This document shows, one piece after another, positions 1 through 61,622 of a stretch of 64,000 bases of DNA (positions within the stretch are counted from its first letter, which is position 1; every line of letters starts with the position of its first letter). The position numbers and the translations under genes are program-made. The stretch comes from Escherichia phage Murica, in the sequence record NC_041871.1. The stretch is one strand, 5' to 3'. The notes under the pieces were generated by a model, which worked only from the letters and a program-made list of their open reading frames with translations, ran no database searches and was not told the origin of the DNA.

Positions 1-1983
1 TTATTTGGTGTTATTCTTTGCGTCGATCAGTTCACGGTATTCAATCATAGCAGGAGTGTCCCAATATTTCAAGCCCACATGCTTCAAAAGTGGATATTTC
101 TTTTCCAATCTTGCAATATAGGCCTTCCCGCACTTGACTCGGTTGGCGATTAAGATTTTGGCACGATGATTTAGCTCACTGTGCTTCCACGCGGTGTTAC
201 CTTCCCACTTGTGGAAATGTGGCCGATAATTTCCAAAATCTTGCATGGGGATAATTTTCCCTAATTGTCTATACAGGCTGTCATATGAAGTTTCATTTGC
301 TGCGCGAGTCAGTAAGAATTTCCAGGCGTCCTCTTTCAACAAATGTTCCACATTTTTCTCTGTAACATACTGGCAATCAGGATCAGTCCAAAGCAGACGA
401 GATTCTGATACCAGGTACAGATCTTCCCCTTCAGGAATCTGGAGTGCCGCACGCACACGGTCATAATTTTGCTGGTAGATGTTACTTAGCTGTCCCAGCC
501 AACAACTTCCACGTTGGATATCACCCTCATAAGGAATGCAGTGCTTAATCTTCTTGAACTCTGCCTTAGTAATACGTTCACGACGGAAGTAACCATCCTT
601 CTCAAGCTTTTTAACCCAATAACCTGGCTCGTAATGAGTTTTTGTTTCACCTTTCTTCGCAGGTCGGCGAGGGAGCTCTGATAACAATTTGACAGTATCT
701 GCAAAGAACGGATGGTGTGCCGCCTCTTTAAACTCTTTCACCAGATCCGTGTTCCGGCAATAGAAAACGTTGCGTCCGGTGATTTCGCTTAAGTAGTTAC
801 ACTTATTTCGGTTATATTTACCATCTCCGTCGTTAAATACAAGGTATACACCTCGTAAGAACTCCGACTTTCCGTAACGAGCATAGCCTATGCGGCCTTT
901 ATTTAAGCCGCCAGCGAAAATTTCACAATCGCCTAAGTCGCCAAGCCCTGTTTCTTCCCAACGGTTCCACATAAAGTTTTTGCCGAAGATGTGTCCGAAC
1001 ACTCCACTATTCTTCATCATTTCACGTGCTTCTGCGGAGGTTTTTGCCGTCTCCAGTTCTGCAATAACTTCTGCCCCGCGAAGACGTATACCTTCTTTGA
1101 CAAAGGCCTCCAGGCGATCCTGGAATCCACCGTCGTCATGGCCCTCTATGGTCCATTCACGCCCAGGGTTAATATTGCAATCCCCAATAGGAATTTCCAC
1201 GCAGATTGCAGGGTAATCGGTCAATGTCTCCAGGAACTTGGAGCGGTAAGGTTGGTGACCCATCACAACACGGCTCTCATCAGAACTGGTATAACCTTTC
1301 AGGATGGTCATTTTCCAGCCATCCTTCTCGTAATGATACTGTGCCTCAACCTTGTCACCTTCTAACATCTTACTGGTCATAGGATCGGTGACGATGAACG
1401 GAAACTTCGCATAGCGTAAGCACGATGCAATAGCAGTGCGATATTTCAGGACATGCTCTTTCTTAACATGGAACTGAACTTTTACCCCGTTGTGCTCTTC
1501 AGTCTTCCGCTCACGGATCTTGGTAACGTTTGGGATACCCTGATCCAAGAACAATAGATATGTGCTTTCAACACCATTGTGCACACTGATAACATCGAAA
1601 GTGTCCACCATACTGAACGGAGCCTTTGAACCAACACCTTTATTACCTACCAGAGCGTTGCTGTTGCGCTTGGTTGACTCCCCGAGATTCATGAAAGTGT
1701 TGCGGACCATCTCTTCTGACATGCCCAATCCAACGTCCTGCACAAAGAAGTATGGTTCAAGGTCTGTAGGAGAGTGAATGATGATCGGTACATCACCCCG
1801 TCCAGACTCAACATGGGAGTCCACAGCATTGAAGATTGGTTCACGGCAGCTTGCCAGCACCTTATCTTCGTAAATCCCTTTAATGATTAGCCCAAAAGTC
1901 TCTTTGTTCAGAGAAATTGAGCCCCTGGTGACCTCCATATTTCCGGTCAGCACTGCTTTAGTTTCATTACTGTTTACAATCAT
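1..1983 (-). CDS. GHKL-superfamily (Bergerat-fold) ATPase domain protein, 660 aa, large C-terminal region unassigned
   Basis: N-terminal 150 aa carries N-box (REPIFNAVDS), G1 box (VQDVGLGM) and G2 box (GNKGVGSKAPF) in canonical order and spacing. Start overlaps stop of the adjacent SleB-like gene (ATGA). TAA stop at 1-3, so the ORF is complete. Confidence 0.55.
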   Translation of the reverse strand: MIVNSNETKAVLTGNMEVTRGSISLNKETFGLIIKGIYEDKVLASCREPIFNAVDSHVESGRGDVPIIIHSPTDLEPYFFVQDVGLGMSEEMVRNTFMNLGESTKRNSNALVGNKGVGSKAPFSMVDTFDVISVHNGVESTYLLFLDQGIPNVTKIRERKTEEHNGVKVQFHVKKEHVLKYRTAIASCLRYAKFPFIVTDPMTSKMLEGDKVEAQYHYEKDGWKMTILKGYTSSDESRVVMGHQPYRSKFLETLTDYPAICVEIPIGDCNINPGREWTIEGHDDGGFQDRLEAFVKEGIRLRGAEVIAELETAKTSAEAREMMKNSGVFGHIFGKNFMWNRWEETGLGDLGDCEIFAGGLNKGRIGYARYGKSEFLRGVYLVFNDGDGKYNRNKCNYLSEITGRNVFYCRNTDLVKEFKEAAHHPFFADTVKLLSELPRRPAKKGETKTHYEPGYWVKKLEKDGYFRRERITKAEFKKIKHCIPYEGDIQRGSCWLGQLSNIYQQNYDRVRAALQIPEGEDLYLVSESRLLWTDPDCQYVTEKNVEHLLKEDAWKFLLTRAANETSYDSLYRQLGKIIPMQDFGNYRPHFHKWEGNTAWKHSELNHRAKILIANRVKCGKAYIARLEKKYPLLKHVGLKYWDTPAMIEYRELIDAKNNTK

Positions 1984-7756: not shown

Positions 7757-9217
7757 ATGGATAGCAGAAGTTCAGAAATCATTGCCTCTCAGAAAGATGA
7801 TGCCCTGAGAATGTTGCAGGCTGCACGTATGTATCTCCTTGAAAAGCTGCCGTTTTATGGCACACTACTGTCAGGGTTGCAGTTCGTAGAAAACCACACA
7901 TGGTGCTCCACCATGGCAACCGACCATAAACGCATCTATTACAGTCCTGAGTTCATTATGGGATTGGCTGATGAACGCAAGGCTATTCTTAAGGCTTCTC
8001 TAACTGACGAGCAGTTTGAGATGGCTGAAGTTTTCTATTCCCCAAAATCTGTGAAAGAGGTGGCCTTCCTTCTGTCACATGAGGTGGGGCATATTATCTG
8101 TGATCACCTAGTCCGTGGTAAAAGCTTTGAGCCGGAACTGTTCAATATTGCTTGTGATCACGTTATCAACACAGGCCTTGTGGTTGACTTTAGCAAACCT
8201 CCTTGTGTTTTCTTCCCGAAGGGGAAAAGCACTACGTTCATGAAAGGTAAGCCTTTTGGCTTCTTAGCCAGCTGCTACTGCGACATGAAGTTTCATGGAT
8301 GGATTGCTGAGAACGTTTATGCAGTTCTTGATAAGCAAAGAGATCAGAATAACGGTAAAAGTAAGAACGGTAAAGGTGAGAACTCTCAAAGCGATAAGCG
8401 ACAAACCGATGATCACATGAGTGGGAACGGTGGCACCAGTGATAATCTTGGAAAGGCTATGGGGTATGATCAGCCACAACCTGTAATCAGCCAATCTGAT
8501 AAAGATCAGGCCATGCAGGACTCTGGTGATATGCTGGAGGCAGCAATGCAAGCGTCCGGAGGCCGTTGCCCTGAGGCGGTGCGTGAGTTTGTCAAGAACA
8601 GAGGTAAGCCTGTAATCAACTATATAGACATCATTAAGCAACGTATGTTGTCTAAAAGAAAGGCCGAACTGACCTACAGAAAACCTGGTCGCCGATCTGG
8701 GTCTTTGACCAGCACAATGCGAAAAGTTGGGGCTATAAACAAGAACCAGCACGTTATTGTTCCTGGTCGTAATCCGGAAAACACTATAGATATTGTGGTG
8801 GCTTTAGACGTTTCTGGCTCGATCTCTCAAAGAACTTTAAAGAAAATGTTCAATGAAATCACCGGATTGTGCAATCTGTATAAAGAGTTTAAGGTTACAA
8901 TGTTCTGTTGGTCAACTGAGGTTGGAGAGGTTAAAGTATACACTCGCGGCAACATAGACGAGATGGTCAACTATGAGGTCCACTCAACATGGGGCACAAC
9001 AGCTGCTTGCGTGTTCGAGTATCTGGATGCCAACATACCTAATGCAAAAGATGTCATCGTCCTGACCGACCTATACTTTGAGCATAACTTTGAACAAAAG
9101 GTTGTTGACAACAAGTGGAAAAAGTACGATACTCTATGGGTCCTCACTAAGGGGTATAATAAAAATTATATCCCGAGCTTTGGGAAAACTGTGGAATTAA
9201 TCGAGTACGCTAAGTAA
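7757..9217 (+). CDS. vWA-domain protein with N-terminal HExxH metallopeptidase-like domain (DUF2201-like, usual partner of MoxR ATPases)
   Basis: HExxH in LLSHEVGHIICDHL; MIDAS-like DxSxS in VALDVSGSIS. Start re-called from 7736 (inside the hairpin) to ATG 7757. Confidence 0.6.
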   Translation: MDSRSSEIIASQKDDALRMLQAARMYLLEKLPFYGTLLSGLQFVENHTWCSTMATDHKRIYYSPEFIMGLADERKAILKASLTDEQFEMAEVFYSPKSVKEVAFLLSHEVGHIICDHLVRGKSFEPELFNIACDHVINTGLVVDFSKPPCVFFPKGKSTTFMKGKPFGFLASCYCDMKFHGWIAENVYAVLDKQRDQNNGKSKNGKGENSQSDKRQTDDHMSGNGGTSDNLGKAMGYDQPQPVISQSDKDQAMQDSGDMLEAAMQASGGRCPEAVREFVKNRGKPVINYIDIIKQRMLSKRKAELTYRKPGRRSGSLTSTMRKVGAINKNQHVIVPGRNPENTIDIVVALDVSGSISQRTLKKMFNEITGLCNLYKEFKVTMFCWSTEVGEVKVYTRGNIDEMVNYEVHSTWGTTAACVFEYLDANIPNAKDVIVLTDLYFEHNFEQKVVDNKWKKYDTLWVLTKGYNKNYIPSFGKTVELIEYAK

Positions 9218-56403: not shown

Positions 56404-57960
56404 TTAATTTTCCATGTTGGATATGGAATTATCTCTGGTTGATGACATCTTAGAAGTGCCGTTACCAGTGGATCCTGCAGCCATTCCATCACCAGCTCTA
56501 CTGATGTCCTGGCCCAAGAGCTTCATCAGCTCTTCCTGATCCATGTCCTCGTCAAATCTTTCATCAAACCCACCTACTTCAAGAATCTTATTAATTACTG
56601 CAGGAGTTTTTGGCAAGTAACCTACAGCACCGATCCTCTGGACAAACTTGGAGAAGCTCTCCATGTCCACCTCTTCAATCAGACCAGGTTTCAGTTTAGG
56701 CATATCATCATCTTCAAGGATGATACCATTCAATGCCAGAAGTTGTGGAATAAGATCTTTGTTGAAGGCTTCAGTGATAATATCTATATCACGCTGAACA
56801 AAATGACCATGGATAGACTGTTTTGACTCAGACAGAGAGAAGGATCCAACGTTATCGTTACCGAGGTTAATAAAGCCAGCACCGAAACGGTCAAGAATCG
56901 CCTTCTTACGGGCATCAATCAAATCTTTAGTGGAATACTGCTTACCCATACCGTCAACCCCCTTCAGGGTCATGGAGTAAAGCTCTTTACCAGACTTATC
57001 TCTATCAGACGGAAGTATAAAGAAACTTTGCTCACCACTATGGGCGTTTGCTGCGTCAAGCATAAGGTCTGCAACCATTCTCCCCTCCATTGAATTCGGG
57101 TCAATGCTGGCCTTGTTCAAAATATTGGAAGGAATTTTCAGCTCAAGCACACCACCAAGGTCTTTGGAACAGCCAACAACCTCAAGGTTTTCAATCAGAA
57201 CTTTCTCACGGAAAGATCTGTAGCAACCTATCATAGGTGACACACCTGCAGGGTTAGATTCTGTTCCTGACAGGGTCATGAGCATAAGCTTTTTAGCAGG
57301 GATGAAAATTTCAGGCTCATTAAAGCCTTTTGAAGGCATTGCAGCAAGAGGTCCAGCCCAGCGTGCATTCTGAGTGTTTAGAAATGCATTAGGTGACTGA
57401 TAAATACCTGTCAGTGTTCTACTGTTCTTGTCAAAGACAAACGGCTCTGATCTGGACAAACTGGCCTGAGGTCGGAATGCAATTTTATCAATAAGAAGCA
57501 TCCCGGCGTATTTACCTTCTTTCTCTCTGCGGTATACTTTCTCAAACAGTGAAAAACCATACTCGTTAAAGGTAGCTGCGCTTCTTGCAATATCTCGAAG
57601 AGTTTGTTGGTTTGCCAAATTACGCAAAGAATACTCTATAAGCTCTGCAGCTTTCTTAGAGTCTTCACTTTTAACATTATAAAGGATCTTAAAATCATTG
57701 AATGCTTTCGTGATGAAAACATATTTTGTATCTAAGGCAGTAGCAACTGTGGAATCACATTTCATAGTCTCCACTGTAGCAATCAGCTGAGGCCAACGCA
57801 ATTCCTCAACCATCATAGATTGCGATTCTGCCATAATTTGGGAAAGTGCGCCAGAACCGATCTCACTCATACGAACATTATGAGTTGGTGCGCCTGCGTT
57901 CCCAGATTTATTCACAGTTTTGGCTGTGGCGTTGTGTTTCCTGCGGTTCTTTTTGGACAC
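56404..57960 (-). CDS. portal protein, 518 aa
   Basis: Size and position immediately downstream of the large terminase; acidic C-terminus. Confidence 0.6.
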   Translation of the reverse strand: MSKKNRRKHNATAKTVNKSGNAGAPTHNVRMSEIGSGALSQIMAESQSMMVEELRWPQLIATVETMKCDSTVATALDTKYVFITKAFNDFKILYNVKSEDSKKAAELIEYSLRNLANQQTLRDIARSAATFNEYGFSLFEKVYRREKEGKYAGMLLIDKIAFRPQASLSRSEPFVFDKNSRTLTGIYQSPNAFLNTQNARWAGPLAAMPSKGFNEPEIFIPAKKLMLMTLSGTESNPAGVSPMIGCYRSFREKVLIENLEVVGCSKDLGGVLELKIPSNILNKASIDPNSMEGRMVADLMLDAANAHSGEQSFFILPSDRDKSGKELYSMTLKGVDGMGKQYSTKDLIDARKKAILDRFGAGFINLGNDNVGSFSLSESKQSIHGHFVQRDIDIITEAFNKDLIPQLLALNGIILEDDDMPKLKPGLIEEVDMESFSKFVQRIGAVGYLPKTPAVINKILEVGGFDERFDEDMDQEELMKLLGQDISRAGDGMAAGSTGNGTSKMSSTRDNSISNMEN

Positions 57961-58062
57961 AAGCTTTACCCCTCAAAACAGTATAACAAAATAGCCCTCG
58001 TGTTAGAGGGCTAGTATCTCCGATTACTCTATTCTACCACATCTAATTAAGATTGGCAACAC

Positions 58063-59610
58063 TTAGATAAAACGCTTGAACATAGAAGGTGATGAGATTG
58101 ATGGAATCACACAAGGAAGTGCTACCTCCTCTTTCTCCAGGAAATTAATCGCAGAAGCTACACAGTCTGCCCAGTCGTCTTTTCTGTTAAATGTTGATCT
58201 TTCTCCGTTGAATTTTTCAAGTTCAGTCAGAAATGCTTCCAGAGTATCAGGATGGAAACTGGATTTTACAATCCTCACCATTCCTTGTTGTGCAAGATTG
58301 GCAAAAGGTGAGAACCTTGTCAGTTTAGATTTGTTGGAAGGCATTGGGTCTTCTTCAACCCTGAACCCTTCGGCGAGCAAGGATCTGGATGAGGTTAAGA
58401 ACTCACTCTTACCTGCCTGACCAGGGTCCACAGAGAATACGATTATGCAATCATCACCATCAAACTGCGCCTGTTTCCTGATGATCACATCTCGTTCACC
58501 AGCCTTTTTACAGAACTTGCCTTCCAGACCTGTGGAATACCTCCCGTCATCCACGTTCTCAGGACAATAATCACCGGACAGGTAATAAAAGCCGTCGCTA
58601 TCTTTACTTACCTTAATACTGGCGGTAAAGTCAGGAAATTTATTACCGGAAGTTCTCTCGGTTCCTGCCTTATCCCATGCCCTGCAAGATACTGATCCAA
58701 TGGGTACTCTATCGGCATCACGAAGGAAAGATCTTTGAAAATAGTTTGCACCCTCAGGCTTTGCAAACCAGTTACCATGAAGAAGCTGAGCTTTTTCCAG
58801 TTCCGGCAGACCTTCAAGGAAAGCAAGGTATTCTGGGTTGTCTCTTAAGCAGACAGGATTATCGAATATTGTTGCGCCTATAAACGAGAATGACAACGGT
58901 CTTGGCTTGATCTCTACGCCAAGTCCGTTAACCGTGGTGTATTTCTCTATCAACTCTTCTTTAGAGTCTCCCCAGATAAATTCACCGTCGCGTCGGATAA
59001 AATATCTTTTCTTACCGCATTTCTCCGGATCTGGATACCCTTCATCGTCCAACCACCATCTAACCAGTTTGGCAAGCATGTGTTCTGAATCGGGGTTACA
59101 GCTGATAACCATTCTTGATGGATACTTTGACTGAGATCGCAGACGAGACATCAGATAGTCTATCTGCTCCCATTCGAACTGCGTGCCCTCATCGAAGCAA
59201 ACCATGGTGTACTCAAGCCCCTGATGGTTAAGCTTATCTTGTACATACTCCATATGGCAGTATTTTACAACAGCTCCCTTTTTGCTTCTATCCCACTTAC
59301 CAGTGTTCGGATCAAACCGTGGAAAAATGAACTTATGATCCTTCTCTCTGAACTTTGGCTTAATGTTTTCAGGCAGATCACTGTAAATAGCTACTGCTTT
59401 AGGCCATAGTCCACCCTCACCTTCCAACTGTGGGGTTGTTCTTCGGAACATAACCACAGAGCTGTGGGGGTCATCAATAATTTTAAGTGGCATCAACTGC
59501 AAGAGGAACGACTTGCCAGACCCTGCGGCACCGCCGATTACCAAAATATCTGCATCGTTTTCTAGGATCATCTTCTGCTTTTCAGAACACGGTCCGTAAA
59601 TCTTAGACAT
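58063..59610 (-). CDS. terminase large subunit
   Basis: Walker A GGAAGSGKS near the N-terminus, Walker B-like MVCFDEGTQF, C-terminal nuclease-like region with acidic residues; 515 aa. Confidence 0.85.
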   Translation of the reverse strand: MSKIYGPCSEKQKMILENDADILVIGGAAGSGKSFLLQLMPLKIIDDPHSSVVMFRRTTPQLEGEGGLWPKAVAIYSDLPENIKPKFREKDHKFIFPRFDPNTGKWDRSKKGAVVKYCHMEYVQDKLNHQGLEYTMVCFDEGTQFEWEQIDYLMSRLRSQSKYPSRMVISCNPDSEHMLAKLVRWWLDDEGYPDPEKCGKKRYFIRRDGEFIWGDSKEELIEKYTTVNGLGVEIKPRPLSFSFIGATIFDNPVCLRDNPEYLAFLEGLPELEKAQLLHGNWFAKPEGANYFQRSFLRDADRVPIGSVSCRAWDKAGTERTSGNKFPDFTASIKVSKDSDGFYYLSGDYCPENVDDGRYSTGLEGKFCKKAGERDVIIRKQAQFDGDDCIIVFSVDPGQAGKSEFLTSSRSLLAEGFRVEEDPMPSNKSKLTRFSPFANLAQQGMVRIVKSSFHPDTLEAFLTELEKFNGERSTFNRKDDWADCVASAINFLEKEEVALPCVIPSISSPSMFKRFI

Positions 59611-60801: not shown

Positions 60802-60876
60802 TGGTGGCCCTGGGTGGAATTGAACCACCGTCTGGCGATTATGAGTCGCTTGCTTGAACCTTCCAGCTACAGGGCC
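60802..60876 (-). tRNA. tRNA-Met or Ile2 (anticodon CAU)
   Basis: Perfect 7-bp acceptor GGCCCTG/CAGGGCC, anticodon loop CTCATAA, T arm GGTGG-TTCAATT-CCACC, encoded CCA; G1-C72 pair argues against an initiator. Confidence 0.65.
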
Positions 60877-60877
60877 T

Positions 60878-60953
60878 TGGTGCTGATGGCAGGACTTGAA
60901 CCTACAACCTATTGATTACAAATCAATTGCACTACCGATTGTGCTACATCAGC
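60878..60953 (-). tRNA. tRNA-Thr (anticodon UGU)
   Basis: Perfect acceptor GCTGATG/CATCAGC, anticodon stem ATTGA/TCAAT with loop TTTGTAA, T loop TTCAAGT, encoded CCA. Confidence 0.7.
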
Positions 60954-60958
60954 AAAAA

Positions 60959-61057
60959 GGTGCTAGGTGATGGAATCGAACCACCTATGTATTCAACGAC
61001 TACCTCGTCTATTTTCAGGATTAAAAATCCTCGCCCTTGCCAAAGGGCTTACCTAGC
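60959..61057 (-). tRNA. atypical tRNA-like element (99 nt): tRNA acceptor, D and T arms, but no canonical anticodon arm
   Basis: Perfect 7-bp acceptor GCTAGGT/ACCTAGC, D arm GCCC/GGGC, T arm GGTGG-TTCGATT-CCATC. The intervening 47 nt form two small hairpins (AGGAT-TTTTT-ATCCT and ACGA-GGTAG-TCGT). A Lys (UUU) reading needs a mismatched stem and a 29-nt variable region. Confidence 0.4.
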
Positions 61058-61154
61058 TCAGTATGTTGACCATGTTGCTAGTCGGCGATGACGACTGTAA
61101 CATTTGATAATCCGGTTCTGCTTCCGGCTTTCGCTTAATTACAAGGTCAACAAT

Positions 61155-61246
61155 GTGGCGGAGAGTAATGGAATCGAACCATCATCGAGTCATCCTCAAC
61201 GGGACGGTTTTCAAGACCGCTTGAGCACCATTGCTCCCTACCCTCC
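61155..61246 (-). tRNA. tRNA-Ser (anticodon UGA), type II
   Basis: 92 nt, acceptor GGAGGGT/ACTCTCC, anticodon stem GCGGT/ACCGT with loop CTTGAAA, long variable arm, T loop TTCGATT, encoded CCA. A TATAAT -10 lies 7 nt upstream. Confidence 0.65.
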
Positions 61247-61526: not shown

Positions 61527-61622
61527 ACTGGGTGGCTTTCTTTTACACCTTAGCCGCCAGAAAAGGTGGGAGACCATGTTTACAATATTACACTGTTAAG
61601 CAAAGTTTGTCAAGAAAATATT

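Follow-up and report, generated by a model that had tools for sequence, protein, structure and literature searches.

Transfer RNA (tRNA) genes of phages have recently been recast as counter-measures to tRNA-cleaving immunity (PARIS, PrrC, retron-Eco7 and P2-OLD), and phage tRNAs are an established counter to these four systems. Three types of phage tRNA give this rescue: tRNA-Lys(UUU) acts against PrrC and, in phage T5, against PARIS, tRNA-Tyr(GUA) against retron-Eco7 and tRNA-Thr(UGU) against P2-OLD and AriB. They lie in phage tRNA clusters, have altered or shortened anticodon stems and are otherwise canonical decoders of 75-85 nucleotides (nt) which replace the host tRNA. In pseudo-tRNAs and tRNA mimics, such as Bacillus cereus tRNA-Other, the tRNA-like domain of transfer-messenger RNA (tmRNA) and the YrlA module, the acceptor, T arm and elbow are kept and the anticodon function is lost. 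A review on such RNAs is cited in PMC10690425. Small stable RNAs are also encoded in the tRNA cluster of phage T4 (RNAs C and D, or species 1 and 2; genes rnaC and rnaD), of which rnaC has a T arm and a terminal stem.

The present analysis concerns a tRNA-like element of Escherichia phage Murica (NC_041871.1), found in a stretch of 64,000 nucleotides, the whole of which is referred to here as the window. The element is a minus-strand RNA of 99 nt encoded at 60959-61057, between the genes of tRNA-Thr (60878-60953) and tRNA-Ser (61156-61246) predicted by ARAGORN. At 99.8% identity, the region matches Escherichia phage rV5 (V5) and related members of the genus Vequintavirus, and the window copy is referred to as the rV5-type copy (NC_011041 coordinate = window coordinate + 1262). 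Comparative analysis of the aligned homologues showed a predicted tRNA L-shape with a too-short arm carrying a lineage-specific loop and with an extra hairpin between conserved purine-rich linkers. Our preferred reading, to which we assign a probability of roughly 0.4, is that this is a functional, phage-specific, five-arm tRNA-like RNA which is matured in the manner of a tRNA and acts as a non-decoding mimic in counter-defence. A tRNA-derived RNA with a non-standard role had already been considered in an earlier sequence-only reading of this DNA and remains the best interpretation.

Anatomy and conservation of the element

The RNA reads GCUAGGU-AA-GCCCUUUGGCAAGGGC-G-AGGAUUUUUAAUCCU-GAAAAUA-GACGAGGUAGUCGUU-GAAUACAUA-GGUGGUUCGAUUCCAUC-ACCUAGC-A-CC (all coordinates below refer to the minus strand). 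The 5' strand of the acceptor stem, GCUAGGU (RNA positions 1-7, 61051-61057), pairs perfectly with the 3' strand ACCUAGC (60962-60968). The connector A8-A9 (61049-61050) leads into the D arm GCCC-UUUGGCAA-GGGC (61033-61048), whose loop contains at 61040 the G of tRNA position 19, the elbow partner of C56 in the T loop. The T arm GGUGG-UUCGAUU-CCAUC (60969-60985) includes one G.U pair and a canonical T loop. At the 3' end the discriminator A73 and CC (60959-60961) leave the CCA incompletely encoded; UUUUU comes next, followed by tRNA-Thr. The D and T arms are separated by 47 nt (RNA positions 26-72), which form two hairpins in the minimum free energy (MFE) fold. Hairpin 1, AGGAU-UUUUA-AUCCU (61017-61031), is a shortened anticodon-like arm of 15 nt, and hairpin 2, GACGA-GGUAG-UCGUU (60995-61009), resembles an extra variable arm. 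The single-stranded, A-rich linker 1, GAAAAUA (61010-61016), lies between the two hairpins, and linker 2, GAAUACAUA (60986-60994), joins hairpin 2 to the T stem. The MFE fold is a five-arm cloverleaf with a free energy of -34.2 kcal/mol (z = -3.66), equalled by none of 200 shuffles. The perfect 7-base-pair (bp) acceptor stem, the good D arm, the canonical T arm and the 47 nt with two hairpins described in the sequence-only reading were thus confirmed. For the D arm, an alternative with 6 bp and a 4-nt loop (UGGC), as in tRNA-Sec, was predicted by both MFE folding and RNAalifold; U14-A21 and U15-A20 are invariant, and covariation therefore speaks neither for nor against the 6-bp stem.

Two alignments of the element and its homologues (the family) were analysed, one made with MAFFT on 21 sequences and a model-based one on 38 distinct sequences, which leans towards structure and with which the MAFFT alignment agrees. 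Standard pairs were formed in 92.7-92.9% of the cells, compared with 76-79% in shuffles (none of 500 reached the observed value), a control that takes no account of phylogeny, and with 34-48% when the 3' partners were slid by 1-3 columns, a control that does. In the 38-sequence alignment, the acceptor, D and T stems were 100% paired, and changes on both sides occurred in 18 of the 27 pairs, giving 169 such cells where 56.5 were expected. Double changes affected five of the seven acceptor pairs and three of the four outer D-arm pairs (variants GCCC/GGGC, GACC/GGUC, GCGG/CCGC and GCAG/CUGC), and the T-stem pair 51:63 alternates between U:A and C:G. The elbow pair (columns 18/94) is G:C in 27 and U:A in 11 distinct sequences with zero exceptions, that is, G19:C56 is replaced by U19:A56, and this compensatory change shows that the L-shape of a tRNA is maintained. 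Moreover, all 21 first-round members fold singly into the same five-arm shape. By these alignments, the structure is far beyond chance, and the comparison with related phages that had been proposed earlier thus revealed a conserved family with covarying helices.

The stem of hairpin 1 covaries in its own register: the first pair is AU (23), GC (12) or GU (2), the fourth UA (15), CG (14) or AU (8), and the fifth CG (16), UA (10) or C.A (11). Every member has a hairpin 2, of which there are at least four types that differ by lineage; members of one type share the loop sequence and show covarying changes in the stem, as in GACGA/UCGUU and GACGG/CCGUU, CCCCC/GGGGG and CCUCC/GGAGG, or GCC/GGC and GUC/GAC. 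The linkers (GAAA... and ...AUACAUA) are essentially invariant while the adjoining helices change their sequence. In linker 1 the G-A-A-A is nearly invariant, and in linker 2 the AUACAUA directly before the T stem is invariant in all homologues found by blastn; a pattern search favours homologues with the conserved motif, so that the linker 2 invariance of the contigs retrieved in this way partly reflects the search method. A8 is likewise invariant across the family where tRNAs have U8, and position 9 is A or G (AA in 24, AG in 13 distinct sequences). Several interactions of the linkers were considered and rejected. An antisense role of linker 2 found no support in the window, where its complement is not enriched (12 matches compared with 15.9 expected); the element itself provided the sole exact match. 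Pairing of linker 1 with linker 2 (AUGU/ACAU) is available in Henunavirus and in the metagenome contig L045 and is impossible in rV5, Seunavirus and Mydovirus. The other lineages do not conserve a pseudoknot of linker 1 with the loop of hairpin 1 (UUUU/AAAA in rV5).

Among the described RNAs, the element appears to work most like a class II tRNA scaffold without the standard anticodon geometry. It shares with the class II tRNAs (Leu, Ser, Tyr) the 7-bp acceptor stem, a D arm with GG, the T arm, the elbow and an extra hairpin before the T arm, and these are the best-scoring ordinary tRNAs on the family covariance model (about 25-30 bits). However, the hairpin of the family is set off by conserved linkers of 7-9 and 8-10 nt instead of 1-2 nt, its anticodon-like arm has 15-16 nt, A8 replaces U8, and there is no conserved anticodon. 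The earlier statement that the element is neither a standard type I nor a standard type II tRNA was confirmed. Resemblance to tRNA-Sec (RF01852) lies in the possible 6-bp/4-nt D arm and the long extra arm. For the Henunavirus and Schitoviridae copies, tRNA-Sec is the best Rfam match with 39-40 bits, which is below the gathering score of 47; this match is due to a D arm which can take the form of 6 bp and 4 nt, the C-UCAAA loop and the long extra arm, the loop CAUCAAA being one base from the Sec loop CUUCAAA. Identity with tRNA-Sec was rejected because acceptor and T stems have 7+5 bp compared with 8+5 or 9+4, because A occupies position 33 and because the discriminator is U (A in rV5) instead of G; the loop of rV5 is UUUUUAA. 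The allo-tRNA-like sequences of soil metagenomes (Mukai et al., 2017; reviewed in PMC7609411) may similarly form a five-stem junction and be non-translating, but they are bacterial, have an 8/4 or 9/3 acceptor/T architecture and carry destabilising mutations (PMC7609411), whereas the family is phage-only and well paired. Membership was rejected on the definition given in PMC7609411, since 38 of 38 sequences have the 7/5 architecture. RNAs C and D of T4 have 139 and 119 nt and a different architecture, and homology was rejected: with filters off, the family model gave rnaC 9.5 bits (E = 0.13) and left rnaD unmatched at E up to 10. In comparison with the nuclease-resistant phage tRNAs, the element has an extra arm, a 15-nt anticodon-like arm and no anticodon that its orthologues conserve, and to the pseudo-tRNAs and mimics it has no sequence relationship.

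Decoding capacity and the favoured reading

The anticodon-like arm has 15 nt in the rV5, Avunavirus and Henunavirus types and 16 nt in Seunavirus and Mydovirus, compared with the standard 17. Its loop comprises 5, 6 or 7 nt across the family and differs between lineages (AUCAA in 13, CAUCCA in 12, UUUUA in 5, UUAUA in 3 and others in 4), with the pattern C-N-N-C-C-A in the Seunavirus and Mydovirus type; in most lineages the loops have 5-6 nt and are closed by Watson-Crick pairs. Near-identical Mydovirus copies differ solely at loop positions 2-3. At the equivalent of U33, 26 of 37 distinct sequences have A, 9 have U and 2 have C; as discriminator, 29 of them have U, 5 have A and 3 have C. The would-be anticodons of the orthologues are UUU, UAU, UCC/GCC and UCA. 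From the set of features of a canonical elongator tRNA, the element has the acceptor stem, T arm, D-loop GG and elbow, and in the rV5 copy a score of 35.5 bits with the Rfam tRNA model RF00005 (gathering score 29). A 17-nt arm with U33 and a conserved anticodon was not found, nor was U8 or a variable region of 4-5 nt or with an abutting arm; the variable region of rV5 has 31 nt, with conserved single-stranded linkers of 7 and 9 nt around its hairpin. Judged by these features, the element cannot be a standard decoder in most lineages.

The rV5 copy requires separate consideration. The Rfam alignment gives hairpin 1 a 4-bp stem and a 7-nt loop (AGGA-UUUUUAA-UCCU), with U33, UUU at positions 34-36 and A37, position 27 being deleted and the remaining nucleotides being placed as an insertion in the variable region; this is the reason why some annotators assign tRNA-Lys. 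The earlier claim that a 7-nt anticodon loop is missing is too strong for rV5, where the 4-bp/7-nt reading is available. Other assignments were rejected. Removal of an intron to restore a standard anticodon arm was rejected: no intron family matched, and the extra 26-31 nt, all within the variable region, fall well below the length of a group I intron. The description as a tRNA with an insertion holds only historically; the extra nucleotides are ancient, conserved and structured in all members and are neither an intron nor a recent insertion. ARAGORN in its tRNA and tmRNA mode, one of the checks suggested by the sequence-only reading, called the gene at exactly 60959-61057 on the minus strand as 'tRNA-???' and found no tmRNA in the window, and 99 nt are too short for a tag open reading frame. 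A YrlA-type RNA gave 25 bits against a gathering score of 69, at another place in the cluster.

Since most orthologues cannot decode and the scaffold is nevertheless kept everywhere, a mimic or decoy with exchangeable loops is favoured. The RNA probably would not serve as a regular decoder, a point of which we are less certain, and would compete with real tRNAs for a tRNA-directed host factor as an accessory counter-defence RNA. Hairpin 1, and perhaps hairpin 2, would then be an exchangeable specificity module on the conserved scaffold. In E. coli the likely targets would be nucleases of tRNA-Lys(UUU), namely PrrC-type enzymes and AriB of PARIS, for both of which this tRNA is the known target. 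A73 is the discriminator of tRNA-Lys and forms, together with the UUU anticodon, the identity set of lysyl-tRNA synthetase (LysRS); in the family, A73 is confined to the rV5 lineage. The top of the rV5 hairpin 1 (GA-UUUUUAA-UC) is identical at 10 of 11 positions to positions 30-40 of E. coli tRNA-Lys(UUU) (GA-CUUUUAA-UC), which AriB cleaves between positions 40 and 41 (sequence and cut site: PMC11464382). The tRNA set of rV5 includes Tyr(GUA) and Thr(UGU) beside the element. A T4 RnlA-like RNA ligase is encoded at 66779-67714 of NC_011041, about 1.5 kb past the window end, which suggests a capacity for tRNA repair beside the tRNA cluster. At 65706-66260 of the same record lies gp076, annotated as 'phosphoesterase'. 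The Lys-like loop, A73, the Tyr and Thr neighbours and the RNA ligase place the element in a tRNA-centred arms race. In a more specific version of the mimic, virulent enterobacterial phages would carry a modular decoy whose tRNA-shaped scaffold, made up of elbow, acceptor/CCA end and a conserved five-way junction, shows exchangeable look-alikes of host anticodon stem-loops. These would be of the Lys(UUU) type in rV5, resemble Gly in phages of Salmonella and Klebsiella and be of the UCA type in those of Erwinia, and would neutralise tRNA-cleaving immune nucleases such as PrrC and PARIS AriB by binding without decoding. This version is put forward tentatively and is in our estimate unlikely.

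Several points weigh against the non-decoding mimic. We infer its decoy function from anatomy and context only, and a literature search for expression, processing or binding data on this RNA in any phage returned none. The junction linkers and the elbow are most conserved, not hairpin 1, and the functional site may therefore be elsewhere. No nuclease is known that would fit loops of the Gly-like (NCC) or UCA-like kind, as they occur in other lineages. A decoy would also have to be abundant to compete with the host tRNA pools. Finally, the rV5 loop with U33, UUU, A37 and U32/A38, together with A73, has all the hallmarks of a working anticodon loop and also fits a real tRNA-Lys.

This last point is the core of the strongest rival, in which the rV5 copy is a working, if odd, tRNA-Lys(UUU) that is charged by LysRS, decodes AAA and AAG and is immune to anticodon-arm nucleases by virtue of its shortened and resequenced anticodon stem, so that it replaces host tRNA-Lys cut by PrrC or PARIS as the T5 tRNA-Lys does. 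We consider it rather unlikely as a whole. It is consistent with the Rfam 4-bp stem and UUUUUAA loop (U33, UUU, A37), with A73 only in the rV5 lineage, with the annotation as tRNA-Lys in the BASEL records and with the rescue from PARIS and PrrC by phage tRNA-Lys, and ARAGORN found no other tRNA-Lys of rV5 in the window. Functional phage tRNAs with 4-bp anticodon stems are documented, including a tRNA-Thr which resists P2-OLD by this means (PMC12445682). Nevertheless, the arm is 2 nt short, which goes beyond mere mispairing, A8 stands for U8, and a variable region of 31 nt with single-stranded linkers of 7 and 9 nt occurs in no known decoder. In the sister lineage Av-05, UAU goes together with a tail other than CCA and with U73 or C73, a combination that agrees with the identity set of no synthetase, and most other orthologues have 6-nt loops or A33. 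With such incoherent orthologue loops, a tRNA-Lys in rV5 needs a different function in each lineage on one scaffold. ARAGORN's own model of the gene, with an AUUUU/AAAAU stem, an 8-nt loop and the anticodon AUCC, would make it a quadruplet-decoding frameshift-suppressor tRNA, and the annotation of phage slur16 repeats this call; the required all-A.U stem is missing in relatives distant from Av-05, such as KE22, GAP31, Mydovirus and Henunavirus, where the AGGNN/NNCCU hairpin covaries instead, so that the model was rejected and the reading is scarcely tenable.

Less likely than the tRNA-Lys are, in descending order, a processing role in cis, a non-ribosomal aminoacyl donor and a pseudogene. In the role confined to cis, the element would be a folding spacer or an entry site of RNase P or RNase E for the neighbouring tRNAs, or would simply hitch-hike. 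It always lies inside tRNA clusters at tRNA spacing, usually beside tRNA-Thr(UGU), and is dispensable in phages V18 and JES2013, which this role would accommodate; the invariant linkers, the elbow covariation, the hairpin 2 loops with covarying stems and the encoded CCA are left unexplained by it, and the place within the cluster differs by lineage (upstream of Thr in rV5, downstream in others), so that we regard it as improbable. An aminoacylated RNA with a non-ribosomal use, as amino-acid donor or as sponge for a synthetase or EF-Tu, is in our opinion very improbable. G1:C72 and C2:G71 are nearly invariant and U73 is found in 29 of 37 sequences; by the general identity rules of glycyl-tRNA synthetase (GlyRS) and LysRS, the Seunavirus/Mydovirus loop, which keeps C35-C36-A37 while positions 33-34 vary, resembles the bacterial GlyRS set, and the UUU loop with A73 in rV5 corresponds to Lys. 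The G3:C70 of the Gly set, however, is never present (3:70 is C:G, A:U or U:A), the discriminator is not fixed, and no transferase emerged as a candidate. A tRNA pseudogene in decay, which was among the early suggestions, or a tRNA-like fold arisen by chance could account for the inconsistent or missing annotation and for the loss of the element from some relatives. It is effectively refuted, with next to negligible probability, by 38 distinct sequences from several genera (at least five genera of Vequintavirinae and one Schitoviridae phage) in which five helices are kept by compensatory changes: decay is excluded by these changes together with the covarying tertiary pair and the invariant single-stranded linkers.

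Maturation, distribution and annotation

On the minus strand, the cluster is arranged in the order promoter, tRNA-Arg(UCU), Tyr(GUA), Ser(UGA), a spacer of 98 nt, the element, Thr(UGU), a CAU tRNA and Pro(UGG). A sigma-70-type promoter (TTGACA-17-TAATAT, 10 of 12 matches in a consensus scan) was found upstream of tRNA-Arg at 61585-61613 (minus strand), and matches the 'P(tRNA)' annotated just 5' of tRNA-Arg in NC_011041; a scan of the interval between promoter and element gave no convincing terminator. In most lineages the element begins 2-3 nt past the CCA of the upstream tRNA. In rV5, tRNA-Thr(UGU) (60878-60953, minus strand; ARAGORN) follows 5 nt downstream, and in Av-05, KE22, pEa55, Mydovirus and the metagenome contig L049 it adjoins the element or is one gene off, the element being upstream of Thr in rV5 and downstream in the other lineages. 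Of 37 distinct sequences, 29 encode N-CCA, the 3' tail being UCCA in 28, ACCU in 4 (the rV5 type), CACA or UACA in 3, CCCA in 1 and ACAU in 1. The acceptor stem, T arm and elbow support the view that the element keeps everything needed for tRNA-type maturation, in line with the earlier remark that a perfect acceptor and T arm permit such processing. With a cluster promoter, no intervening terminator and tRNA spacing, tRNA-type release and CCA completion are to be expected: transcription would start at the cluster promoter, RNase P and 3' exonucleases would cut out and trim the element, the CCA-adding enzyme would complete its end to CCA, and the mature product would be a stable RNA of about 97-100 nt.

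The vequintaviruses V18 and JES2013 carry deletions which remove tRNA-Ser, the spacer and most of the element, and because these phages lack it the element is regarded, on genomic evidence, as an accessory and dispensable gene like other phage tRNAs. In both, the 5' half of tRNA-Tyr is joined to the 3' end of the element, in V18 (locus L064, 919-985) at the junction ...GUCGUU|GAAUACAUAGG and in JES2013 (locus L065, 919-1010) inside the T arm. These chimeras are dead hybrid genes, since their acceptor strands no longer match.

A blastn search with the rV5 copy and a divergent Salmonella-phage copy as queries retrieved about 150-190 phage records, one count being about 187. They belong to Vequintavirus and Avunavirus (Escherichia), Seunavirus (Salmonella, Cronobacter, Escherichia), Mydovirus (Klebsiella, Raoultella, Proteus) and Henunavirus (Erwinia), and one N4-like member of the Schitoviridae, Salmonella phage UTK0002, has the element as well. 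A scan for the conserved motif added 15 IMG/VR and 28 metagenome contigs and gave no match in 185,579 bacterial and archaeal species genomes, so that a bacterial origin or chromosomal copy was rejected. Within the databases searched, the family is restricted to phages of enteric bacteria. A covariance model built on 21 distinct sequences separates members (81-125 bits) from ordinary tRNAs (at most 30 bits) by a gap of more than 50 bits, and by this model there is one copy per genome, that of the element being the sole one in the window. About 18 GenBank records of 'Campylobacter phage' (MG0656xx) are 99.6-99.8% identical to rV5 in this region and are unannotated; they look like rV5-type coliphages which were mislabelled or entered as contaminants.

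The rV5 reference record and genome paper list six tRNAs and omit the element. Elsewhere it is annotated as tRNA-Lys (BASEL phages), tRNA-OTHER, tRNA-TERM/Stop(tta), tRNA-???(atcc), as in slur16, or not at all, and Erwinia phage records label the orthologue tRNA-TERM. In none of the scanned loci outside the rV5 type did ARAGORN report the gene, and Rfam at E<=0.05 gave no match at the element loci of Seunavirus (L002) and Mydovirus (L022). Hypothetical protein genes have been drawn across the element at 1400-1519 of L002, 667-951 of L023, 769-1116 of L026 and 90278-90314 of phage Mydo (NC_048741); these annotations, one of which has a ribosome-binding site, are almost certainly spurious open reading frame calls. 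A search of the literature and of Rfam for an earlier description of the family found none, and the family is so far undescribed.

Neighbouring loci and wider meaning

Other features of the cluster and of related loci were noted. In the spacer at 61058-61155 (minus strand), about 85 nt align in the same sense with phage lambda 44866-44952 at about 83% identity, and the likeness extends to other lambdoid phages and to phage D6. The lambda segment is the untranslated late leader that separates orf-64/tR' from the holin gene S. Both the rV5 and the lambda sequence fold as a three-way junction whose closing helix differs in sequence and keeps its pairing (UGUUGACC/GGUCAACA in rV5, UGUGCUG/CAGCACA in lambda). 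No Rfam family matched the junction, and it may be a conserved RNA motif ahead of lysis genes that has escaped recognition. The rV5 'tRNA-Met(CAT)' at 60802-60876 (minus strand) is a tRNA-Ile reading AUA in the BASEL records. Its acceptor strand GGCCCUG provides C4:G69 and C5:G68, and the anticodon arm GCGACUCAUAAUCGC is very similar to that of E. coli ileX. These features we take to be determinants for lysidine synthetase (TilS), and because of them the CAU tRNA is probably a tRNA-Ile2 and not an extra tRNA-Met as discussed in the rV5 paper. The large terminase gene (56765-59610, minus strand) is split into three, and one of the intervening sequences contains an HNH endonuclease gene, an arrangement already described in the rV5 genome paper.

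In Salmonella phage KE22 (L002, 1423-1492, minus strand) and at the equivalent loci L001, L015, L018 and L019 of Seunavirus and Avunavirus, an unannotated, conserved stretch lies directly downstream of the element. Its beginning resembles that of a tRNA (GUGCAUUAGCUCAG...), and within it lies ACGGA-CUGAUCA-UCUGU, whose 7-nt loop includes GAU. No gene was called there by ARAGORN or by Rfam (E<=0.05); the stretch could be another aberrant gene of tRNA-like kind or a relic. In Mydovirus (Klebsiella, Raoultella) and Henunavirus (Erwinia), the element is followed by a different conserved sequence, AAUCUAUUCUGCGAGGUUCUGAAACACUUAAAAUCUCCUGCAUCUA..., at about 729-798 (minus strand) of L022 and in L025 and L021; this sequence hardly differs between the genera and carries no annotation. 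Directly upstream of the element of Klebsiella phage KNP2 (L020, 911-985), ARAGORN called a 'tRNA-???' with a 2-base anticodon (ga), at the position of tRNA-Ile(GAU) in seunaviruses. The phage contig L045 (metagenome contig ERZ808232 NODE-18, 151,860 bp), which also carries the element, encodes at the end of the examined locus (7862-7934) a tRNA with a CUA anticodon which ARAGORN names 'tRNA-Pyl' and which resembles an amber suppressor.

In more than 150 genomes of therapeutic-candidate phages, the gene described here is unannotated, annotated in four ways or hidden under spurious protein genes, and the 'tRNA-TERM' (suppressor) labels may be misread as a safety or recoding signal. The covariance model, which separates the family cleanly, could seed an Rfam entry. 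If the element is a decoy or a nuclease-proof substitute, it would widen the RNA-based anti-defence repertoire of phages and provide a handle for finding the targeted nucleases. If the modular decoy with its host-like loops should prove true, the family would represent an anti-defence principle distinct from the supply of replacement tRNAs.

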